Assembly (NCBI GenBank): GCA_016699915.1
Contig: CP064990.1
Location: 644,456 to 708,455, forward strand
DNA: 64,000 bases
DNA from: Neisseriales bacterium
GTDB lineage: Bacteria > Pseudomonadota > Gammaproteobacteria > Burkholderiales > Q3-R57-64
Direction: 5' to 3'
Shown here: in pieces, positions 26,291-39,841 of the stretch
How positions within the stretch are numbered: position 1 is the stretch's first letter
Layout: each line of letters opens with the position of its first letter
The notes under the pieces: generated by a model
Told to the model about the DNA's origin: nothing
Databases searched by the model: none
What the model saw: only the letters and a program-made list of their open reading frames with translations
Position numbers and translations under genes: made by a program

Positions 26291-26571
26291 TGGTGGGCCC
26301 AGCTGGACTTGAACCAGCGACCAACGGATTCTGCTTTATGTTGCTTTCGCAACTCGCTGGACTATGTCTTCACCCTATCACATGGACTTAGGTGGGCGCC
26401 GTATAGTCTCTACACCTTCTGTTGATAGTCACACCAACAGCTTGGCTCGGCGTTACCATGAATCGTTATTTTTAGGTTTCGCCGAATTTGACGCCATTCA
26501 CTATCGAGTTTCCTCATATAGTGCACAGTTATCTATGAGTCCGCTGCTCTGACCAACTGAGCTATAGGCCC
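26291..26571 (-). tRNA. tRNA-Ile2 (anticodon CAU, lysidine type) interrupted by a 204-nt intron in the anticodon loop
   Basis: The 5' exon is 26571->26535 (GGGCCTATAGCTCAGTTGGTCAGAGCAGCGGACTCAT). The 3' exon is 26330->26291 (AATCCGTTGGTCGCTGGTTCAAGTCCAGCTGGGCCCACCA). Joined, they give a 77-nt cloverleaf. The T-arm and 3' half match E. coli ileX as I recall it, and the gene sits downstream of rpoD as ileX does in E. coli. Confidence 0.85.
26331..26534 (-). ncRNA. Group I (IC3, Azoarcus-like) self-splicing intron, no ORF
   Basis: P1 is CAU|AG-auaa-CUGUG with a U:G pair at the splice site. P2 is a hairpin with a GAAA loop. Core strings present are GGCGTCAAATTCGGCGAAACCTAA, GGTAACGCCGAGCCAAGC and GAAGGTGTAGAGACTATACGGCGCCCACCTAAG. 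P9 is GTTGC-GAAA-GCAAC, and the last nucleotide is G. Confidence 0.8.
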
Positions 26572-26635
26572 TCTTTTACATACATTATTTCATGCTACTT
26601 GTGTTAGGGCAAGTAGCCTTACCTACGTTATATTT

Positions 26636-30886: not shown

Positions 30887-30962
<76 letters not shown>

Positions 30963-31140
30963 ACCAATCAACATTTCAATTCCTCATTTCCATTGGAGGT
31001 GGTTTTAATTACTGAGTTGCTCGTCTTAGTCAAGAATGATTCCACTCGCTCAAAAAAACAAAAATTGCAAAAAAATCATTCAAAAACAAAATGCTGCTAT
31101 TGGATTCCTGGTAGGATAGATGCGTCAAAAAATTTACCTG

Positions 31141-31416
31141 TTAAACAGCAGAACGTTTTATTTCTTTAATCTGTAAAATTTTCGATAGTTTACCAACAAG
31201 ATGTAGTCGCTTTTGATCTCCGACAGCTAATCCGAGTAACGATTTTGCAATAGGCCTGCTTTCATTTACAATACCATTATCAAGATCATCTTTGGTGTTT
31301 GTTATTTGAATCGTCAAAATATCTTCTGGGTTCGCTAAATCAATGTAATGTATAACGTCGCCAACCTCTACCGTTAGTTCAGTTTTTGTGCTGGTGCTTT
31401 TGTTATCCTTTGTCAA
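31141..31416 (-). CDS. GreA/GreB C-terminal-domain-only protein
   Basis: VEVGDVIHYIDL...ILTIQITN...ESRPIAKSLLGLAVGDQKRLHL...ILQIKEI fits the Gre C-terminal (FKBP-like) domain pattern. The coiled-coil N-domain is absent. Confidence 0.6.
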   Translation of the reverse strand: MTKDNKSTSTKTELTVEVGDVIHYIDLANPEDILTIQITNTKDDLDNGIVNESRPIAKSLLGLAVGDQKRLHLVGKLSKILQIKEIKRSAV

Positions 31417-31458
31417 AATTGTTGATGTGTCAATATACCGATTTTCTACTGTTGAATC

Positions 31459-34400
31459 TTATGTTTGCTCAGAATCTTCAATGGTTTCTTTAAGATCATT
31501 ATTTGATACTATGTCTAGCTCTAGAGTATTAACAACACGCTGTTCGCAATAAAGACTGGGTACTACACCATCAGAGCTGGTAGGATATACATTATTTTCG
31601 CTCAACGCTCCAATAAGGTCTTCAATCATTTCTTCTCTTCGTCTAAACCATGTTGAAGCAAGACACCGCCAAAAAACCCAGCCTGCTCTCTCTAACATTC
31701 TTTGGCGCGCTATATCATCCTCCCATTTTTCTGGGCCGTGATACTGGTCACCATCACATTCAATAGCTAAACGTGCATCATTCTCACCTTCTACAACCAT
31801 ATCAATTCGAAATAATTGACCAATTTGTACCTGGGGAATTACCCTATACCCACGCTCTGTTAGTACATCGTACACTGCTTTTTCGAATTCTGATTCGCAT
31901 AATTCGCGCGTATCCTTTCTACAACTTTCATTGTAGGAAAACGGTGCAGAAAAATGCGCAATTAGACTACGTCGAAACTTATCAGCTGGACTTAGCTGTT
32001 CGATAGAAACAGACCTAACTAAATACATACGATCACGGGCACGCGAAGCTGCTACATTAAATCGTTGAGCATAAGTCTCTCTAGTTAAAGGAGCGCCTAA
32101 TTCGTTGGGCGCAACTACCATCGATAAAAATACAATATCTCGCTCTTTGCCCTGGAAATCACTTGCACCACCATAAGCAATTCGATGCTTGTCCCATACT
32201 TCAGAGCCTAGCTCTTGTATTAACATATCACGAATTCGACAGGCTTGTTGTTTGGCTAGTAAAGATACAATACCAATTGAACGGCTAGACAAGGACTCAT
32301 CGTTAACTATTTTTTTAATTTCTGCCACAATAAATTTTGCTTCTGCGATATTTTCATCTCCTGCTCGATATCCATCTTGGATAAGAACATCAATCAGCGG
32401 TGGATCAAGCCTTTCAGACATTTTTGGTAATCGAATAGGTATAAGTTCATGATTGTAAAATTCACGTTTTGAATACTCAATGATTGGATGAACACATCTA
32501 AAATGTTCCTTGAGCATGACGGTATTATTTGCATAAACAGTTTTAAATAAATCGTATATTGATCTTTCTGGCGACATGACTGATTTATAAATCCCAACTT
32601 GATTACCTAGACATTGATCCATTAAATGCCTAATTTTTTCTTCCAATCCTACCCCTTCTGGAGATACTTGTTTATCATCGCCCACAATTAGAACTTTTTG
32701 AGCGCGCAGTAATACTGGTAAGGCCACTAAATCAGATTGCGAAGCTTCATCTACAATAACAAGATCAAAATCCCCTAAATTAGGTGGCAACGATTCAGAA
32801 ACTCTATCATGTCGCATAATCCAGCAAGGTACAGCCCAATTTGCTTGGGAAGCTGCATCCCGTGCATTTTTGCGATAACGAACTTCACGTTTACCAGTTC
32901 CTTTTCCCATTTTTTGAATAGCAGCAAGATAAGCTTGGAGTGCAGAACGTACCTTTGGCGAAGCATTTTCTTCAATTTTTAACCAAGTTCTTTTTACAAT
33001 GACATCTTGGTAGGTCTTAGCTAATCTAGTTTCGGTATCATGTCTATCTTTGGATAAAGTTTGAAGTTGCTTTTGGCAGTCAATTTCTTCAAGATAAACC
33101 GCTAAACGCTTTAGTTTCCAACTTTATTGCAAATTGTTGGGTAACAAATGGTCAATAGCACCACTCACTGGTTGCTGTAAACGCATTGCATACTCAGGGG
33201 CTCCAGATTGCTTGATAAGTTCGGTGACACGAACCACTACATCCAGCTGAGGGCGTAGTTTCAAAACGCGAGAAAGTTCGGCAGTTAATTCCAACCAAGT
33301 TTCTTGTATCTTGCTATCTGTTACAAGCGGATCACCTAACGTTTGATTTAAAAAAGCACGAATTGCCTCAACAATTAACCCGCTTTTGTTTGTCAAAATT
33401 TTCTGAAATTCTGATTTTTGTGCCCATACATTTGCCAGCCGGCTTTTTGATAAATGATGGTTGAGTACAACAATCAACTCATCAACAATATCTTTATTGC
33501 CAATCGCCAAATCAGAGTTCAACCAGAGCGGAAATAGTTTTTTGGCTTTTAAGGAAATTTTTTGTTTCAATTCAACTTGTTTTCCTATATTTTCAAAAAC
33601 AAGTAAAAACTCATAAGCTTGCTGAGCGCTTTTTGCAGAAACAGCAACCCTTGGCAAACCAACTTCCGGTGCAATAACATTCCAACGAATAGTAAGCTCT
33701 TTTAAGTCTTTCTGAAATTTAATATAGCTGGCAACATGTTTCCATTCATCTTCATCGCGCGGATCATGACCGAGGATCCTAATATCCTTAATTGCTTTTT
33801 TCTCTGCGGATTTACCAAGCAATCCGGAAAGACCAAATGGATATTTGCCTTCAGATAGTCTTTTTATCGCTTCCAGTAATTCTGGTTGCATTTCATCCGG
33901 AACAGATACTGGTTTTTTGATAAAGCGCTCGCGTACTCCTGGGATTCGCTTGAATTTTTCTCCAAGTTCATATAGATTTTTTACAAAATCTCGCTTTGAA
34001 CGGTCTTCTATGTTTTGCGTAACTAATAAGAGCCATTTATAATCAGCCGCTTTTAAAGTTTCGCGTATTTTCTGCAATTTTTTTATATCTTCACTTAAAG
34101 CCCGAACAGCTTCAAAAGTTTTTTGAGTGGTATCCATAAGATTTGGCATACCATCAGCTTCGGCTTCTTTTTTTAATTCCTCCAACCTTGAAATATCTTG
34201 GTGAATTTGTAAAATTTCTTCCGCTTTTGGTAATTCAATCATTTGTGGTAATGATGATTTTACATATGCAATATCATGACCAAGTTTCCTACGAACATCC
34301 TTCAATGCCTTGATATCTTCGTTGTTGAAAAGAGGATCGAATTGAGAAGAGATAGTTATGGTATCTTCAATCCATTCATAATTTCCTTTATTCTCAATTA

Positions 34401-36066
34401 ATTCTAAGGTAGCGACATAAGGATCAATCTCAGCTTCATTGATAGCAATTTTTCCAAAAATCTTTTTTGCGAGCACTGAAATATCCCAATCAATTTTTGC
34501 GAGCTTGCTGTGTAAAGCATCAATATTTTCTTCCAAATGATTAATTTCTTTTGCAGTGGTACTGCGATCTACACTTTGAATGGCAGATGAGATTTTTTGT
34601 ATAGAATATTCAAATTGCTTTTGTCCATCTTGATCATTAGTTAACAATGGTATGGCTAGGGGTTTAATCTCATCAGGCAATTGTTGATGCAAAACACTTA
34701 AGGCTGGATCTTTCATGGATGTAACTAATATGCGTTTACCATTGGCAAGAAAATGGCAAATAATATTTGCGATAGTATGGGTTTTTCCAGTTCCAGGAGG
34801 TCCTTGGACAACAACTCCACTATGAGACTCAAGACGCTGGATAATTTTAACTTGCTCACCATTAAAGGGCTTAGGAAAATAAAAGTCTTTCGAATTATGC
34901 TCAAGATTCATTCCATCACGGTAAACAGTAGAAAAACCTCTAAATTCTGCCAGCTTAATCTCCGGATTTTCAGTATCTGGCTCAGTAATGATTGCTAATA
35001 CAGCTGGTGGAAATGCTTCTTGTTCTTCAACAGCTTTGATCATGCGATCAAGATCTTGTAAATAAGCACTATGAGTTCTCGGCCTAGCAAATAGTATCCA
35101 AGTATCGGTTACTTTTAATCGATCATCTGCCTTCGGAACAGCACGATCACTCGGTTGAGTTTGGTCTAGCCAATAAATACCATGGGCATCTAAATTAGTT
35201 GCAGCATTTCTCAAAAGTGGCTCATATGTACTATGATCAAATGGTGAAATAACAACTTGAAGTTCATCGAAAAATTCTTTTGCGGCTTTTTCAAGACCAG
35301 TTGTTCCGTAATTTTTTTGAGAAACATACCAGTCTAATTCGACTCTTGGCTCGATATTGCTTCTTGGGCGAATCTCAATAGCAGCTGTTTTTTGATTAAG
35401 AGTAAGCTCGACTAATTGCCCAATGATCGGATAGCGAACGGTAGTTGCATTTGTTTTCCAAACTCCAACACCTATGCCCCATACAAGCTCAGGTTGCGCT
35501 TCAACAATTTCGCCATCAAGCTGTTGTTTTAATGTGTAAAGTTCGCTATATAACTTAATAGTATGAAGACGTTTCTTTTCCTCAAGAGACCAGGGTACCC
35601 ACTGAAGCGCAACGTATTCATCGAAAAGCTTCTGAACCTTCATTGATTCATTATAGTTTTCGATATTGATAAGTGCATCTGGATCAACAAATGGTCCTTT
35701 GCTTTCGCTTTCCTCTAGAGCTTGCTTTGGGAAATGCGTACCTGTTTTTATTAAAGAAGCACCACTTACCGTCGCGAGAAGTGTTGGTTCATTTTGCGGA
35801 CCGTGCGTAAAACTAACCCATGGGCGAAGCCATATATTTGTAATCTCTGGTGGAGAAGTTTCGTGCAATCTATCAACGGACAACCAAATTTCATCATCAT
35901 CTTGCTGAGAGATATTAAAGTGTATCCCAATCGCTCCGCTTAAATTCTCCTCATAAAGCAAAAAATTGTTATGTGCAGATATATTTGCCACTGGGTTTCC
36001 GCGAAGACGAGTTGATTGAGAGCAAAACTGCAATAATTCAATCAACCTTTGCTTTTGCATGTTCAC
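31459..36066 (-). pseudogene. SF1 (Upf1/DNA2-like) helicase fused to a C-terminal DUF559/Vsr-like endonuclease, interrupted by a single in-frame TAA
   Basis: This is one continuous frame of 1536 codons with an internal TAA at 33124-33126. Walker A (VVQGPPGTGKTH) lies in the 980-aa part. The 483-aa part carries DEASQ, VGDDKQVSP, FQGKERDIVFLS, NVAASRARDRMYLV and the nuclease fold (RIDMVVEG...AIECDGDQYH). The 71 codons between the two track ORFs are sense codons in the same frame. Confidence 0.8.
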
Positions 36067-36186
36067 GGTGATTACCTTGATTAAGCCAGTAAAGGTGGAA
36101 ATTTTGAGCTAGTAAGTGACAAAAAGAACTCTAAAAGCACAAAATCTGTCTGTATGGTAACAAGCTTTTGAAAATAGAAACCAAAG

Positions 36187-36266
36187 TATGAAAATAGCGA
36201 TGCTTGTGGTTTTTTGAAAGCGGCCATATTCCTGCATTGAGCGAAACGGGTTCTGCTTGCAAAAAA
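36187..36266 (+). repeat. Inverted repeat, left copy (IR-B), in the intergenic region between the TolQ-like gene and the helicase
   Basis: 72 of 80 positions are identical to the reverse complement of 37676-37755, from my position-by-position comparison. Confidence 0.85.
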
Positions 36267-36280
36267 GGCTGAATTTTTTA

Positions 36281-37441
36281 TTACTCCAACCATTTTTTAA
36301 ACCACTGCCATTTCTTAGGAACAAAACGAACACCTTCTAAGCTTTTAGTTGCTTGCGCAAAATTATCTAAAGCCACTTTGGAACTACTTAATACATTAGC
36401 CAATGATCCAATTTCTCTTTGGAGAGTGAATAAACCATCTGCACTTAACTTCATATTGTTCTTCATGACATCTAGATGATTATTTGCTGTTTTAAACCCA
36501 TCTCCAAATGAAGAAAACTGGGTTAATAAATTTCCTGTGGCTCCCGTAATATTTTCAAAGGAAGCAACAAAAGATTTTTTGGTTTCGGTAAAACTAACAG
36601 CCACTTCCTTGAGCTCATTAAGAGACTTCAAAAAACTTGCAATTGATTGATCAACACCTTTAGCATTTAAGTTAGTCACCATCTTTTGGTTGGCCTGACA
36701 CAATTCATTCCCAACTTCATTGAAAGAACTATTGGCTTTTTTGGTCATTTCCTGTAGATCAGCAAAGCATGTTTTTAACGCTTCCGCATAATTGTTAGAA
36801 TGTCTTGACATAGACTCCTGTGATTTGTTCATCTCCTGCACTAAACCATTTACATCCTTTTTAAGTTGGCTGGTAAGGCCACTGATTTCATTACCTAATT
36901 GACCGTTTAATGCACTAATTTCTCTTCGGAAAACGCTTAATTGATCATTTAGTGCTCGGTAAATCTTTTTAGGGTCAGCGCCATTCGTGTCAAACGTCGA
37001 CTGAGCAGCTAAGAGAATTCTAGCCCATAAGCCAAACATCGTTGCCGTTAACCCCACCCCAAACTGGAATATAGCATGCTGAATCAATTGAGACTTATTT
37101 AAGTCATTAGAAGAATACAAAGCTTCAAAAATAAAAATGCTTGCTAAAGCACAAATCGTTAGAATAAAACCAAGATAATAGGCTAAATCGGCAGCATCAG
37201 GATCATCGACTAGACCTTGTGATTTAATAGAAAAGAAATAACCAAAGATAGTTACTGTATTGATAAAAAATATAGCAATCCCAAGCTTAATATGGCTAGA
37301 TTCACTTACACCAGATTTAAAATATATAATCGAGGTAATGAGCAAAACAATTCCACAACCAAGAAAACGAGAGAATAAATCGCTGGCTTTTTTCTCAATC
37401 TCACTTGCTGTATTTTTAGTTAACTTAACATCCAAATTCAT
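36281..37441 (-). CDS. TolQ/ExbB/MotA-like 4-TM channel domain with a ~240-aa C-terminal helical (coiled-coil-like) tail
   Basis: There are 4 TM segments in aa 20-145. The last two read YYLGFILTICALASIF and GLTATMFGLWARILL, compared with TolQ/ExbB G-L-L-G-T-V-x-G-I and L-I-A-T-A-I-G-L-F-A-A-I. The rest is heptad-like and rich in Q, N, S, L and K. It has its own SD (AGAGG). Confidence 0.5.
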   Translation of the reverse strand: MNLDVKLTKNTASEIEKKASDLFSRFLGCGIVLLITSIIYFKSGVSESSHIKLGIAIFFINTVTIFGYFFSIKSQGLVDDPDAADLAYYLGFILTICALASIFIFEALYSSNDLNKSQLIQHAIFQFGVGLTATMFGLWARILLAAQSTFDTNGADPKKIYRALNDQLSVFRREISALNGQLGNEISGLTSQLKKDVNGLVQEMNKSQESMSRHSNNYAEALKTCFADLQEMTKKANSSFNEVGNELCQANQKMVTNLNAKGVDQSIASFLKSLNELKEVAVSFTETKKSFVASFENITGATGNLLTQFSSFGDGFKTANNHLDVMKNNMKLSADGLFTLQREIGSLANVLSSSKVALDNFAQATKSLEGVRFVPKKWQWFKKWLE

Positions 37442-37471
37442 ATAAAACCTCTATAATTAGGCACATCAATA

Positions 37472-38376
37472 TTATTTAGAACGATCGGCAATTTCACTGG
37501 GGTCACAAGTAAACAGAATGCTATGCTCCTGAGACTGAAATAAAGCTCTCCAAAACGCAACAACGCCTTCCTTTTGCGGTTTTGATAAAATTTGACAAAT
37601 AGCAACATTGCTACGCTCTTTTTGCTTGGTATTTTTTAAATATCCAAGTAAGTTTTTGCCTAATATATCGGTCCATTTTTTGCAAGCGGAACCCGTTTCG
37701 CTAAATGTAGGGATGTTGCCGCTTTCAAAAAACCACAAGTATCGCTGTTTTCATATAAATCCGAGAAAACGATCAGTTTACTACCAGCCTTCCAGTAAGT
37801 TGCATTCGATGTAACCGTTACTAAAGCCTCCACAATATGAGAACGACCCGCATCCCACCTTTGTAAGATATCATCAACCGCCTTTTTAACATGACCCAAA
37901 GCAACATCCTTCACTCTCTTTTCTTCAGTCGCAGAAAGATCGGTCAAAAGCCAAGTTGTATTGGGAGGAAAGGAGCAATAGCTTGCCACCGGCGTCATCT
38001 CTGCAGGTTTTTGGTCAGAAAGTAAATAAATACTCGTTTTTTCAATTTTCTTACCCCCTGTAATCCATGACCAAAATCCTTGTTCAACAAAAGCTGTTTC
38101 CTTAATCAGCCGATATAAATCCTCTATTTTGCCTTCGGGAATTTTGTCAGTTATGTCAACAAAAATAATATTTCTTTTGCCAATATAACTCTCATTTGCT
38201 GGGCAAACACAACGAGGTTCCAATTCTCCTTTTTTGCACTCAACAAATGTTGGAGGTTTAAAAAAATAGGCTACGCCAAACAAACATAATGCGAATACAA
38301 TAGCAAAAAGCATCATACGCTTAGCTAAAACGCTTTCACCTGAGGTTTTTTGAGTAAGCGCCCTGTAATTTTTCAT
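37472..38376 (-). pseudogene. Membrane-anchored vWA-like protein, split by a frameshift at a T6 run (238-aa and 88-aa track ORFs)
   Basis: N-terminal TM followed by vWA-like strands (NIIFVDITDK, TSIYLLSD, SKLIVFSDLYEN). The reading frame moves by -1 at GGT TTT TTG (37734-37726). The downstream frame stays open for 84 more codons, which is unlikely by chance in AT-rich DNA. Confidence 0.55.
37676..37755 (-). repeat. Inverted repeat, right copy (IR-A), inside the 3' part of the vWA-like gene
   Basis: Partner of 36187-36266. It includes the T6 frameshift site. Confidence 0.85.
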
Positions 38377-38377
38377 T

Positions 38378-39841
38378 TCAATTCAGAATGTACTCATCTT
38401 CTGCATTTGCTTGCGCTACTTTTTTTGAGCCATGTTTTTTATCCTCGGGCATTTTGGGGAAGTTAAGTAAATCAGTTATGTCAGATTTTTGCCACCAAAC
38501 TTGCAAACTTTTCTTCTGGGAAAGAATTGATTTTTGCAATGTTTGAGCTTGTTGATGAATACCTTCCTTATTTTTTATAAAGTCTTCTAACTGTGTTTTA
38601 TAACTTTCCAACTGCGTATTCTCAGATAGGCTTTGTATTTTTTGTGGGTAGTCATCAGTACCATTGGGCTGATGTGCACTGATGGTAATTTTAAAAATCT
38701 CTTGCAGTTGTTGATAAGCAAAATCAACCTGTTTTCGATCTTCTTCCCAAGCTTTTATTTCTCTTGCAATTTCTGGCAGATTCCCATTAAAGTCATCATA
38801 GGTTGACAAAATTCGCATGCCTAAATTATCTAAATCCAGATCCGCGCGTTGCTTAAGATCGGTACAATACACCCCACGAGCATTTTGCGCTTCCGCTAAT
38901 CGCTTCGACCATTTATCAAACATTCTGGCGTAATGTCCATAACCGGGATAGGGATCATCTAATTGATAGCCTTTTTGAAAAGCTGCAATACCCATACTAA
39001 TACCGATTAAGAACAACACCATGCTTTCTAACCAAAATGCATCATTAAATCCTTCGTTCGCACTAATATAGCGATACCTATAAAAGGCAATAATGCCATT
39101 AATGATTAAAATTGCTAAGATGGAAAAAATAAGGTACCACGCGCCACGCTTGGCTTTTCTTTTATTAATATGGTTTTTAATCCGATATGCAAAACCAAAA
39201 ACTGTGTTCGATACAATATTCAGTGCAGCTATACCAAAAGCTACAAATAAAAAAGTTAAAAAATTGATTCCCTGCCTTAAGAAAAAAGCGTTGAATAACG
39301 CTTCAGCAATACCAAAAAACACTAACCAGTATAACGCATTCTTTCGATCAGAGTAAATTGCAGAAACGCTAATACCATTTGCCCCCTTAAATACCTCTAA
39401 ATCCTTTTTAGTTTCTTGATATTTCTTAACAATGCGATCTACTTCAGCTTGATTCTGCGCCACCCACGATCTGATTTTACCTTCAAGGTCTTCTGGTGCG
39501 GCATGAGACAGCTCACTATATAAACCAGACTTTAACAATGCGGATAAATGCTGCAAATCACCAAAATACTGCTTGATAGCGCCAACATGAAATTTGGCGC
39601 ACTCTGTATCCACCATAATACTATCTGTGCGTAAAGTAGCTTCATAGGGATGAATTTGGTTAGGTTTTAGATCATCACCACTTTGAATAGCTTGATAGGC
39701 TTTTATTCTTGCCTCATCTTGCTTTTCTTGCAAGCTTAACCAAGCCAACATTGCTTCAAAACCAATTAACTTGCGCTTTTTTAGACCAAAAAAATGAGCA
39801 ACCGGCTCCAAAAGTTCATCAATTTCTCCAAATGCCAACAA
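38378..39841 (-). CDS. Uncharacterised membrane protein: helical N-domain, 4 central TM segments, coiled-coil C-domain
   Basis: TM segments lie at about aa 168-300, followed by the LDDPYPGYG motif and Q/K/E-rich heptads. The stop is 1 nt from the start of the vWA-like gene, which suggests translational coupling. The TTG start is uncertain. Confidence 0.6.
   Translation of the reverse strand: MLAFGEIDELLEPVAHFFGLKKRKLIGFEAMLAWLSLQEKQDEARIKAYQAIQSGDDLKPNQIHPYEATLRTDSIMVDTECAKFHVGAIKQYFGDLQHLSALLKSGLYSELSHAAPEDLEGKIRSWVAQNQAEVDRIVKKYQETKKDLEVFKGANGISVSAIYSDRKNALYWLVFFGIAEALFNAFFLRQGINFLTFLFVAFGIAALNIVSNTVFGFAYRIKNHINKRKAKRGAWYLIFSILAILIINGIIAFYRYRYISANEGFNDAFWLESMVLFLIGISMGIAAFQKGYQLDDPYPGYGHYARMFDKWSKRLAEAQNARGVYCTDLKQRADLDLDNLGMRILSTYDDFNGNLPEIAREIKAWEEDRKQVDFAYQQLQEIFKITISAHQPNGTDDYPQKIQSLSENTQLESYKTQLEDFIKNKEGIHQQAQTLQKSILSQKKSLQVWWQKSDITDLLNFPKMPEDKKHGSKKVAQANAEDEYILN

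Follow-up and report, generated by a model that had tools for sequence, protein, structure and literature searches.

A predicted Azoarcus-type group I intron in the anticodon loop of a tRNA(CAU) gene next to rpoD in a Neisseriales genome

An interrupted tRNA gene

In this study, we report the analysis of an interrupted transfer RNA (tRNA) gene located in a 64,000-nucleotide (nt) stretch of the genome of a Neisseriales bacterium (contig CP064990.1, positions 644,456 to 708,455), the whole of which is referred to below as the window. The locus occupies 281 nt of the minus strand (26571-26291) and comprises a tRNA(CAU) 5′ exon of 37 nt, an insert of 204 nt and a 3′ exon of 40 nt. The 5′ exon (26535-26571; GGGCCTATAGCTCAGTTGGTCAGAGCAGCGGACTCAT) contains the acceptor 5′ strand, the D arm, the 5′ strand of the anticodon stem and the loop bases C-U-C-A-U, its last base being U36 of the anticodon. 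The 3′ exon (26291-26330; AATCCGTTGGTCGCTGGTTCAAGTCCAGCTGGGCCCACCA) provides A37 and A38, the 3′ strand of the anticodon stem, the variable loop, the T arm, the acceptor 3′ strand and an encoded CCA. Both exons were delimited from the sequence itself, by ARAGORN in intron mode and by alignment with Escherichia coli ileX. Once joined, they form a perfect cloverleaf of 77 nt with a CAU anticodon and the encoded CCA (ARAGORN), the predicted spliced junction being GGACTCAT/AATCCGTT (a slash marks a splice site here and below). The insert (26331-26534) starts with AGATAACTGTGCAC, ends with AAAGCAG and lies between anticodon base U36 and A37 of the tRNA-Ile2(CAU) gene; it was classified as an Azoarcus-type (IC3-like) group I intron on the basis of the Rfam model RF00028, its minimum free energy (MFE) fold and its conservation within a family of homologues.

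The gene was detected by ARAGORN when introns were allowed, as tRNA(cat) i(38,204). In default mode the same program called no tRNA at 26291-26571, and the Rfam tRNA model had no match there, yet it found six other tRNAs in the window. An initial annotation, made by a model from the letters of the window, had already described two tRNA halves 204 nt apart that together give a 77-nt CAU tRNA, and its coordinates were borne out base for base. It had also anticipated that standard tRNA finders would miss the gene and had dismissed as spurious a 62-amino-acid (aa) open reading frame (ORF) across the locus, which lies at 26364-26552 on the opposite strand; the first of these points proved correct.

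Structure and conservation of the intron

The group I intron model RF00028 (Intron_gpI) matched positions 26338-26546 of the minus strand with 78.9 bits (gathering score, 50; E-value, 2.2e-18), and the match covered model positions 1-253 of 253. This search and the ARAGORN run with introns had both been proposed in the initial annotation, and both returned the feature. All the standard group I helices can be formed by the sequence of the insert and its flanking exon bases. In addition, the MFE fold of the 204 nt alone recovered P2, P3, P4, P6a, P8, P9.0 and P9, with an energy of -64.7 kcal/mol versus -45.3 +/- 4.0 for shuffled sequences (z = -4.8).

Homologues were collected by means of two scans. 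The first compared the exact 20-mer TCAAATTCGGCGAAACCTAA (J3/4-P4-J4/5) with one genome per species of 185,579 species and gave 21 loci in 21 GTDB species, 19 of them named as Burkholderiales or Rhodocyclaceae taxa (Propionivibrio, Uliginosibacterium, Ca. Dactylopiibacterium, Pseudoduganella, Polynucleobacter, Limnohabitans, Brachymonas, Sterolibacterium and others) and two of them unclassified metagenome-assembled genomes (MAGs). At 18 of the 21 loci ARAGORN predicted a tRNA(CAU) with an intron of 204-253 nt at the same site, and the order rpsU-dnaG-rpoD-tRNA was present in at least nine. Neither the species of this MAG nor Azoarcus olearius was among the matches of this exact 20-mer scan, which undercounts the intron family and is uninformative on classical Gammaproteobacteria. 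The second scan used an independent core block, GTGTAGAGACTNNACGGCNCNCAYCTA, over metagenome contigs and matched at least 120 stretches. The two scans combined yielded 73 distinct tRNA(CAU) genes with an intron, all reading ...ACTCAT/intron...G/AATC..., and these were aligned together with the window copy (74 sequences; a version with 19 sequences was also analysed). When RF00028 was searched over seven whole intron-bearing loci, only four passed the gathering score, at 50.1-56.2 bits. The threshold of 50 bits thus misses part of the family, and screens of this kind undercount tRNA-Ile introns.

The P1 helix (26524-26537) is formed by the exon bases C-A-U and the intron bases A-G with the guide C-U-G-U-G, closed by the loop AUAA. 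In it the splice-site U (26535) makes a wobble pair with G (26526), and the guide GUG pairs with the anticodon CAU itself. The C-G, A-U and U.G pairs of P1 were invariant in 74 of 74 sequences and the pairs of its extension covaried. P2 (26499-26523), a hairpin of 10 base pairs (bp), has a single bulged A and is capped by a GAAA tetraloop (L2); eight of its 10 pairs were changed on both sides across the family. The 5′ strand of P3 (GGCGUC, 26490-26495) pairs with its 3′ strand (GGCGCC, 26395-26400), which closes the P3/P7 pseudoknot; here a compensatory change from U-A to C-G separates 63 sequences from 10. The P4-P5-P6-P6a domain (26414-26485) has AAA at both J3/4 and J4/5, a P4 made of UCGGCG with CGCCGA, and a short P5 with the receptor-like motif CCUAAA...CAUGG. 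P5 (C-G in 41 sequences, G-C in 27), P6 (C-G in 54, G-C in 18, U-A in 2) and P6a all covary. The 5′ strand of P7, G-(A bulge)-GACUAU (26403-26410), is invariant in the family except for one A-U/U-A swap (58 versus 16 sequences) and includes, beside the bulged A, the G of the putative guanosine-binding G-C pair (26408 with 26360). Its partner strand, AUAGUCC (26359-26365), was placed from the helix model and covariation. P8 (26373-26392) is a hairpin with the receptor-like motif CCUAAG...UAGGG; one of its pairs changes from C-G (56 sequences) to U-A in 18 sequences and another from U-A to G-C in 31. P9.0 (GC/GC, 2 bp) and P9, which is GUUGC-GAAA-GCAAC with its loop L9, occupy 26333-26357, and four of the five P9 pairs covary. 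The second P9.0 pair is G-C in 66 sequences, C-G in the window and six others, and A-U in one. The last base before the 3′ splice site is a guanosine (omega-G, 26331) in 74 of 74 sequences. The pairing of CAU/AG with CUGUG in P1, the GAAA-capped P2, although with the bulged A, and P9 followed by a terminal G are as they had been read in the initial annotation.

Across the 74 sequences the modelled structure pairs in 91.7% of cells, whereas displacing the 3′ partners by 1-3 columns lowers this value to 32-41%, a comparison which favours the model because it was drawn on the window sequence. Changes on both sides were seen in 48 of the 84 modelled pairs, and none of 500 shuffles reached any of the observed covariation measures; since the 74 sequences are mutually related, these shuffle counts are not probabilities. 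Of 154 positions with a conservation of 95% or more among the other 73 sequences, the window pre-tRNA keeps 151. The three deviations affect one base of the D loop and two junction bases, one of which is a U where 73 of 73 other sequences have G and adds a U-A pair to P7. As judged from the alignment, this is the pattern of a maintained ribozyme and not of a decaying one. The closest relative of the window tRNA and intron was found on a metagenome contig (L039:3795-4076, Ga0075524_10002408), with 81% identity overall, 76 of 77 exon positions and the same swapped P9.0 pair; it passes the RF00028 gathering score at 53.6 bits. The RpoD encoded beside it is 57% identical to that of the window, no closer than Burkholderiales proteins.

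The insert has no P5abc extension and no ORF of the size of a homing endonuclease gene, the longest on the sense strand being of 38 aa, which agrees with the initial annotation. In this compactness (about 200 nt), and in the GAAA loops on P2 and P9, it is of the Azoarcus type. The pre-tRNA-Ile of Azoarcus has 284 nt, of which 39 belong to the 5′ exon, 205 to the intron and 40 to the 3′ exon (PMC13168695). The host gene tRNA-Ile(CAU), the site after the anticodon and the guide GUG pairing with CAU are the same in the window, where the sizes are 37, 204 and 40 nt, the 5′ exon being shorter than that of Azoarcus because of its shorter D loop. Rhodocyclaceae loci, including that of Ca. Dactylopiibacterium, have 39, 204 or 205, and 40 nt, and the window pre-tRNA is 75-76% identical to the Rhodocyclaceae copies. 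Three core strings which the initial annotation had described as nearly identical to the catalytic core of the Azoarcus sp. BH72 intron coincide with the Rhodocyclaceae homologues, used as stand-ins for BH72, at 23 of 24, 17 of 18 and 31 of 33 positions. The differences are peripheral: P2, P5, P6a and P8 are richer in A+T in the window and P5 is shorter. With respect to the intron family, the window copy has the two bases of a P9.0 pair exchanged and gains a U-A pair in P7.

Other bacterial tRNA introns are less similar. A group I intron reportedly occurs in the cyanobacterial initiator tRNA-fMet(CAU) (Biniszkiewicz et al. 1994, cited in PMC2686568; see also PMC4033280); it resembles the present one in its sporadic occurrence and its place in a CAU anticodon loop, a likeness of position and distribution rather than of compared sequence, and differs in having an initiator tRNA as its host. 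Some copies of it are said to carry a homing endonuclease gene. The introns of tRNA-Leu(UAA) in cyanobacteria, plastids and Burkholderia are of the same small anticodon-loop kind and, in Burkholderia, betaproteobacterial, but they interrupt another tRNA at another site (between U34 and A35) and hence have another guide sequence. The core block GTGTAGAGACT..ACGGC is also present in many tRNA-Leu(UAA) introns of metagenome and viral contigs. Intron-bearing tRNA-Leu(UAA) genes were listed in 14 Burkholderia species (tRNADB-CE 2008; PMC2686568), and a review that counts alpha- and beta-proteobacteria among the bacteria with tRNA group I introns names only tRNA-fMet and tRNA-Leu as cyanobacterial hosts (PMC4033280).

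Identity of the tRNA, proposed splicing and alternative explanations

The interrupted gene is most likely that of tRNA-Ile2, as suggested by its similarity and its position. The best matches of the spliced 77-mer among all 5,426 complete E. coli genomes were genes annotated as tRNA-Ile, with 87% identity, and the one which was read individually has a CAT anticodon. In an alignment with ileX, metT and metU of strain K-12, the window tRNA shares with ileX the bases C4 and C5, an anticodon stem starting with G and an identical T arm, this last similarity having been pointed out in the initial annotation. C4-G69 and C5-G68 are reportedly identity elements for TilS. The gene also holds the place expected of ileX. 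In the window, rpsU (30696-30484) is followed by dnaG and by rpoD (28594-26636, minus strand), the last gene of the operon, and the tRNA starts 64 nt downstream of it. The order in E. coli K-12 is rpsU-dnaG-rpoD-mug-ileX, and the loci of betaproteobacterial relatives have the tRNA at the same place after rpsU-dnaG-rpoD. AUA, the codon read by this tRNA, accounts for 12.7 per 1000 codons and 15% of the isoleucine codons in 30 long ORFs of the window, with four occurrences in rpoD and 11 in a spoT-like gene. As these codons are in real use, a decoder of AUA is needed, and ARAGORN in default mode found no other CAU tRNA within the 64-kilobase (kb) window.

In the proposed mechanism, a free guanosine bound at the G-C pair of P7 would attack the phosphate after U36, the terminal G of the intron would then take its place in the same pocket, and the 3′-OH of U36 would attack the 3′ splice site, so that the 77-nt tRNA would be ligated and the intron released with no need of a protein. 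These steps are established group I chemistry, and the G-C pair of P7 beside the bulged A is the guanosine-binding site of known group I introns. The GAAA loops on P2 and P9 and the receptor-like motifs of P8 and P5 would be positioned to clamp the fold, and the anticodon stem is said, for the intron of Anabaena, to be expected to hold the exons together. P1 sequesters C34, A35 and U36; lysidine formation and aminoacylation should therefore follow splicing, and only the spliced tRNA would have its C34 converted to lysidine by TilS and then be charged with isoleucine.

We consider it highly probable that this is a tRNA-Ile2 gene holding an intact group I intron and that splicing yields a functional tRNA; the self-splicing of 26331-26534 is itself predicted from sequence. 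Some points weigh against this. A conserved P10 could not be established, the candidates being a single pair next to P1 and, alternatively, a pairing of GAU with AUC (3 bp). In the Azoarcus structure, P5 and P8 each carry an 11-nt tetraloop receptor, CCUAAG...UAUGG; those of the window are close variants at the expected places but non-canonical, with A.C for G.U in P5 and UAGGG for UAUGG in P8. The GAAA loops predicted to dock on them are intact. It must also be considered that the likeness to Azoarcus was drawn from the Rhodocyclaceae stand-ins for BH72, that a second, uninterrupted tRNA-Ile2 gene may exist outside the 64-kb window, and that the preference for Ile2 over Met was derived from similarity, synteny and reported TilS determinants.

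The weak P10, the non-canonical receptors and the limits of the window would all suit a quite different situation, in which the intron would be a decayed relic unable to splice, the tRNA gene a pseudogene, and AUA would be read by a second tRNA-Ile2 or by a tRNA-Ile(UAU) encoded elsewhere; the 64 kb in view hold no other CAU tRNA, and in two relatives an extra tRNA(CAU)-like sequence precedes the intron-bearing gene. We regard this as unlikely. All the helices pair, the conserved positions are intact but for the three deviations described above, which are confined to the D loop and two junctions and of which one adds a pair to P7, the joined exons fold into a perfect cloverleaf and encode the CCA, and the RF00028 score is higher than the 50-56 bits of the five homologues that reached the gathering level.

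It is very unlikely that the interrupted gene is an elongator tRNA-Met. ARAGORN labels any CAU tRNA as Met, the Ile2 call is based on similarity and position, and a group I intron is reported from cyanobacteria in the initiator tRNA-fMet, which shares the CAU anticodon but has a different identity. However, metT and metU differ from the window tRNA in the acceptor stem (T4 and A5 instead of C4 and C5), the anticodon stem and the T arm, precisely where the window gene agrees with E. coli tRNA-Ile(CAU), and its place downstream of rpoD is that of ileX. The pair G1-C72 and the anticodon stem indicate an elongator-type body and rule out an initiator tRNA.

Finally, that the locus is an assembly or binning artefact, with a fragment of another betaproteobacterium joined into the contig, is barely credible even though the source is a MAG and the closest copy of the tRNA and intron comes from an organism with a distant RpoD, given that the tRNA is 64 nt away from an rpoD whose product is 100% identical to the RpoD of the MAG, listed on a contig of 912,463 bp, that the gene order is as expected, that there is no break in composition (G+C content of about 41% in the window, 40-43% around the locus and 46% in the intron) and that 81% is the highest identity met in the collections, which leaves no identifiable donor.

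Host lineage, distribution and inheritance

The RpoD of the window is 100% identical to an NCBI protein labelled "MAG: Neisseriales bacterium", and the next match (P0002) is 75% identical. Identity is 60-64% with the proteins of Crenobacter, Aquitalea, Paludibacterium, Chromobacterium, Vogesella and Neisseria (Chromobacteriaceae and Neisseriaceae) and 54-59% with those of Rhodocyclaceae and Burkholderiales. Neisseriales belong to the class Betaproteobacteria in the NCBI taxonomy, while the GTDB scheme places what used to be the Betaproteobacteria within its class Gammaproteobacteria. The host is thus a betaproteobacterium in the usual taxonomy, and the term gammaproteobacterial is defensible only in the GTDB sense. 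The initial annotation had presented the gammaproteobacterial background as a surprise, and this argument for novelty falls, since the host is betaproteobacterial like Azoarcus, the type host of the intron; the two differ in order (Neisseriales and Rhodocyclales), and the window has about 41% G+C. The initial annotation had also stated that tRNA group I introns are reported from cyanobacteria and a few alpha- and beta-proteobacteria. Betaproteobacterial hosts are indeed known, but "a few", like the wording of the review (PMC4033280), understates how common this intron family is: it proved far more frequent than that in environmental Betaproteobacteria and in phage-like tRNA arrays. In our opinion, the initial annotation delimited the feature correctly and read its kind correctly, the intron being a further copy of the well-known Azoarcus type in the expected bacterial class.

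Within Neisseriales, the tRNA(CAU) downstream of rpoD is uninterrupted in Aquitalea magnusonii and in a Neisseriaceae MAG. The same holds for a metagenome relative (L022/L023) whose RpoD is 64% identical to that of the window. In Crenobacter sp. SG2305 (JAUEDL010000059.1; L147:3547-3873) the orthologous tRNA(CAU) is split after U33 by an insert of about 248 nt, with the junctions ...GGACT/TAAAGGG...GGTAAG/CATAATCC..., and ARAGORN with the -i option miscalls this gene as tRNA-Leu(taa). The insert gave a partial RF00028 match below threshold (21.5 bits, E-value of 0.003) and suggests that an intron entered tRNA-Ile2 a second time, independently, in the order. From the empty sites and the U33 insert it follows that the intron is sporadic in Neisseriales and that the tRNA gene would have been invaded at least twice. 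No Azoarcus-type intron was found in named Neisseriales genomes in narrow scans for exact patterns, and given this narrowness it is only a possibility that the present one is the first in the order. In the closest relative by RpoD (P0002, ENA), 417 bp separate rpoD from the next gene, which is enough for an intron-bearing tRNA.

In two Burkholderiales loci, an extra tRNA(CAU)-like sequence is located 150-220 nt upstream of the intron-bearing gene (L009:6286-6362 and L008:395-432). The one in L009 appears to be a full uninterrupted gene, and it may be either a tandem intron-less copy or a tRNA-Met. These copies bear on whether the interrupted gene is the sole Ile2 gene in such genomes.

The intron is probably an old resident of the lineage, kept vertically and sporadically lost or gained. 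Across the family the G+C content of the intron follows that of the host locus (r = 0.77, n = 59), which fits a long residence better than a recent arrival. With no endonuclease gene, the intron would have had to spread by descent, through recombination of the entire tRNA locus or through reverse splicing. All the comparators are about equally distant from the window copy and so speak neither for nor against a recent horizontal transfer. The similarity to L039 could hint at a transfer of the whole tRNA locus.

A more speculative proposal, to which we give little credence, would make the tRNA-Ile2 gene next to rpoD a target entered repeatedly by ORF-less IC3 introns as they pass from one tRNA gene or host to another, perhaps through reverse splicing and perhaps aboard phage tRNA arrays. 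It derives from the U36 intron of the window, the U33 insert of Crenobacter and the empty sites in the two sampled Neisseriales genomes (L022 being the third), together with the presence of the core block in tRNA-Ser(UGA), Thr, Lys, Arg and Leu genes of metagenomes and in viral contigs with 11-26 tRNA genes.

With regard to these other tRNA genes, the block GTGTAGAGACT..ACGGC was seen in tRNA-Ser(UGA), between U34 and G35, in 10 metagenome contigs, and also in tRNA-Thr (two contigs), tRNA-Lys(CUU) (one) and tRNA-Arg(UCU) (one). According to the ARAGORN calls, on which these cases are based, every 5′ exon ends in T and every intron in G. We know of no reports of such introns in tRNA-Ser, Thr or Lys. 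The block is carried as well by 21 contigs labelled as viral in IMG/VR. Seven of them are dense tRNA arrays, with 11-26 tRNA genes in 7-14 kb, and in six of the seven ARAGORN predicted an intron in tRNA(CAU) and/or tRNA-Leu(UAA); none has rpoD nearby. The tRNA(CAU) of one array (L153), with a 204-nt intron, is 77% identical to that of the window. Phage tRNA clusters are a possible vehicle for ORF-less introns.

As regards the flanks of the gene, a promoter-like sequence, TTGCCC-17-AATAAT with TG before the second hexamer (26584-26612, minus strand), ends 13 nt upstream of the first base of the tRNA. It is weak and was discarded as a promoter of the tRNA, being no better than chance (two sites observed versus 1.5 expected in the pattern scan); no terminator-like site was found. 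Between the stop codon of rpoD and the tRNA there is a perfect 8-bp hairpin, GCUACUUG-CCCUAACA-CAAGUAGC (26594-26617, minus strand), which partly coincides with the -35-like hexamer and is not followed by a U tract; it may serve in processing or attenuation when transcription reads through from rpoD. Elsewhere in the window, the stretch 30887-39841 has 36-38% G+C, compared with about 41% in the rest, and lies beside a tRNA-Ala(CGC) (30887-30962, plus strand). It includes an Upf1-like helicase split in two ORFs, 33124-36066 (AAA_11) and 31459-32910 (C-terminal part of AAA_11, AAA_12 and REase_MTES_1575), and three ORFs with no Pfam matches (36281-37441, 37660-38376 and 38378-39841). This stretch could represent a genomic island, or else a defence locus in which one gene has been disrupted.

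This copy does not change what is known of group I introns, and its value is practical and modestly comparative. It is an A+T-rich natural variant of a ribozyme used as a model in structural and origin-of-life studies, and it adds a deep-branching Neisseriales lineage of about 41% G+C to the hosts on record for the Azoarcus-type tRNA-Ile intron. In practical terms, an essential tRNA gene is missed: if annotated without attention to introns, the genome would appear to lack its decoder of AUA, a codon that makes up about 1.3% of those in the window. If the interrupted gene is the sole AUA decoder, splicing would gate both AUA decoding and lysidine formation in this lineage.

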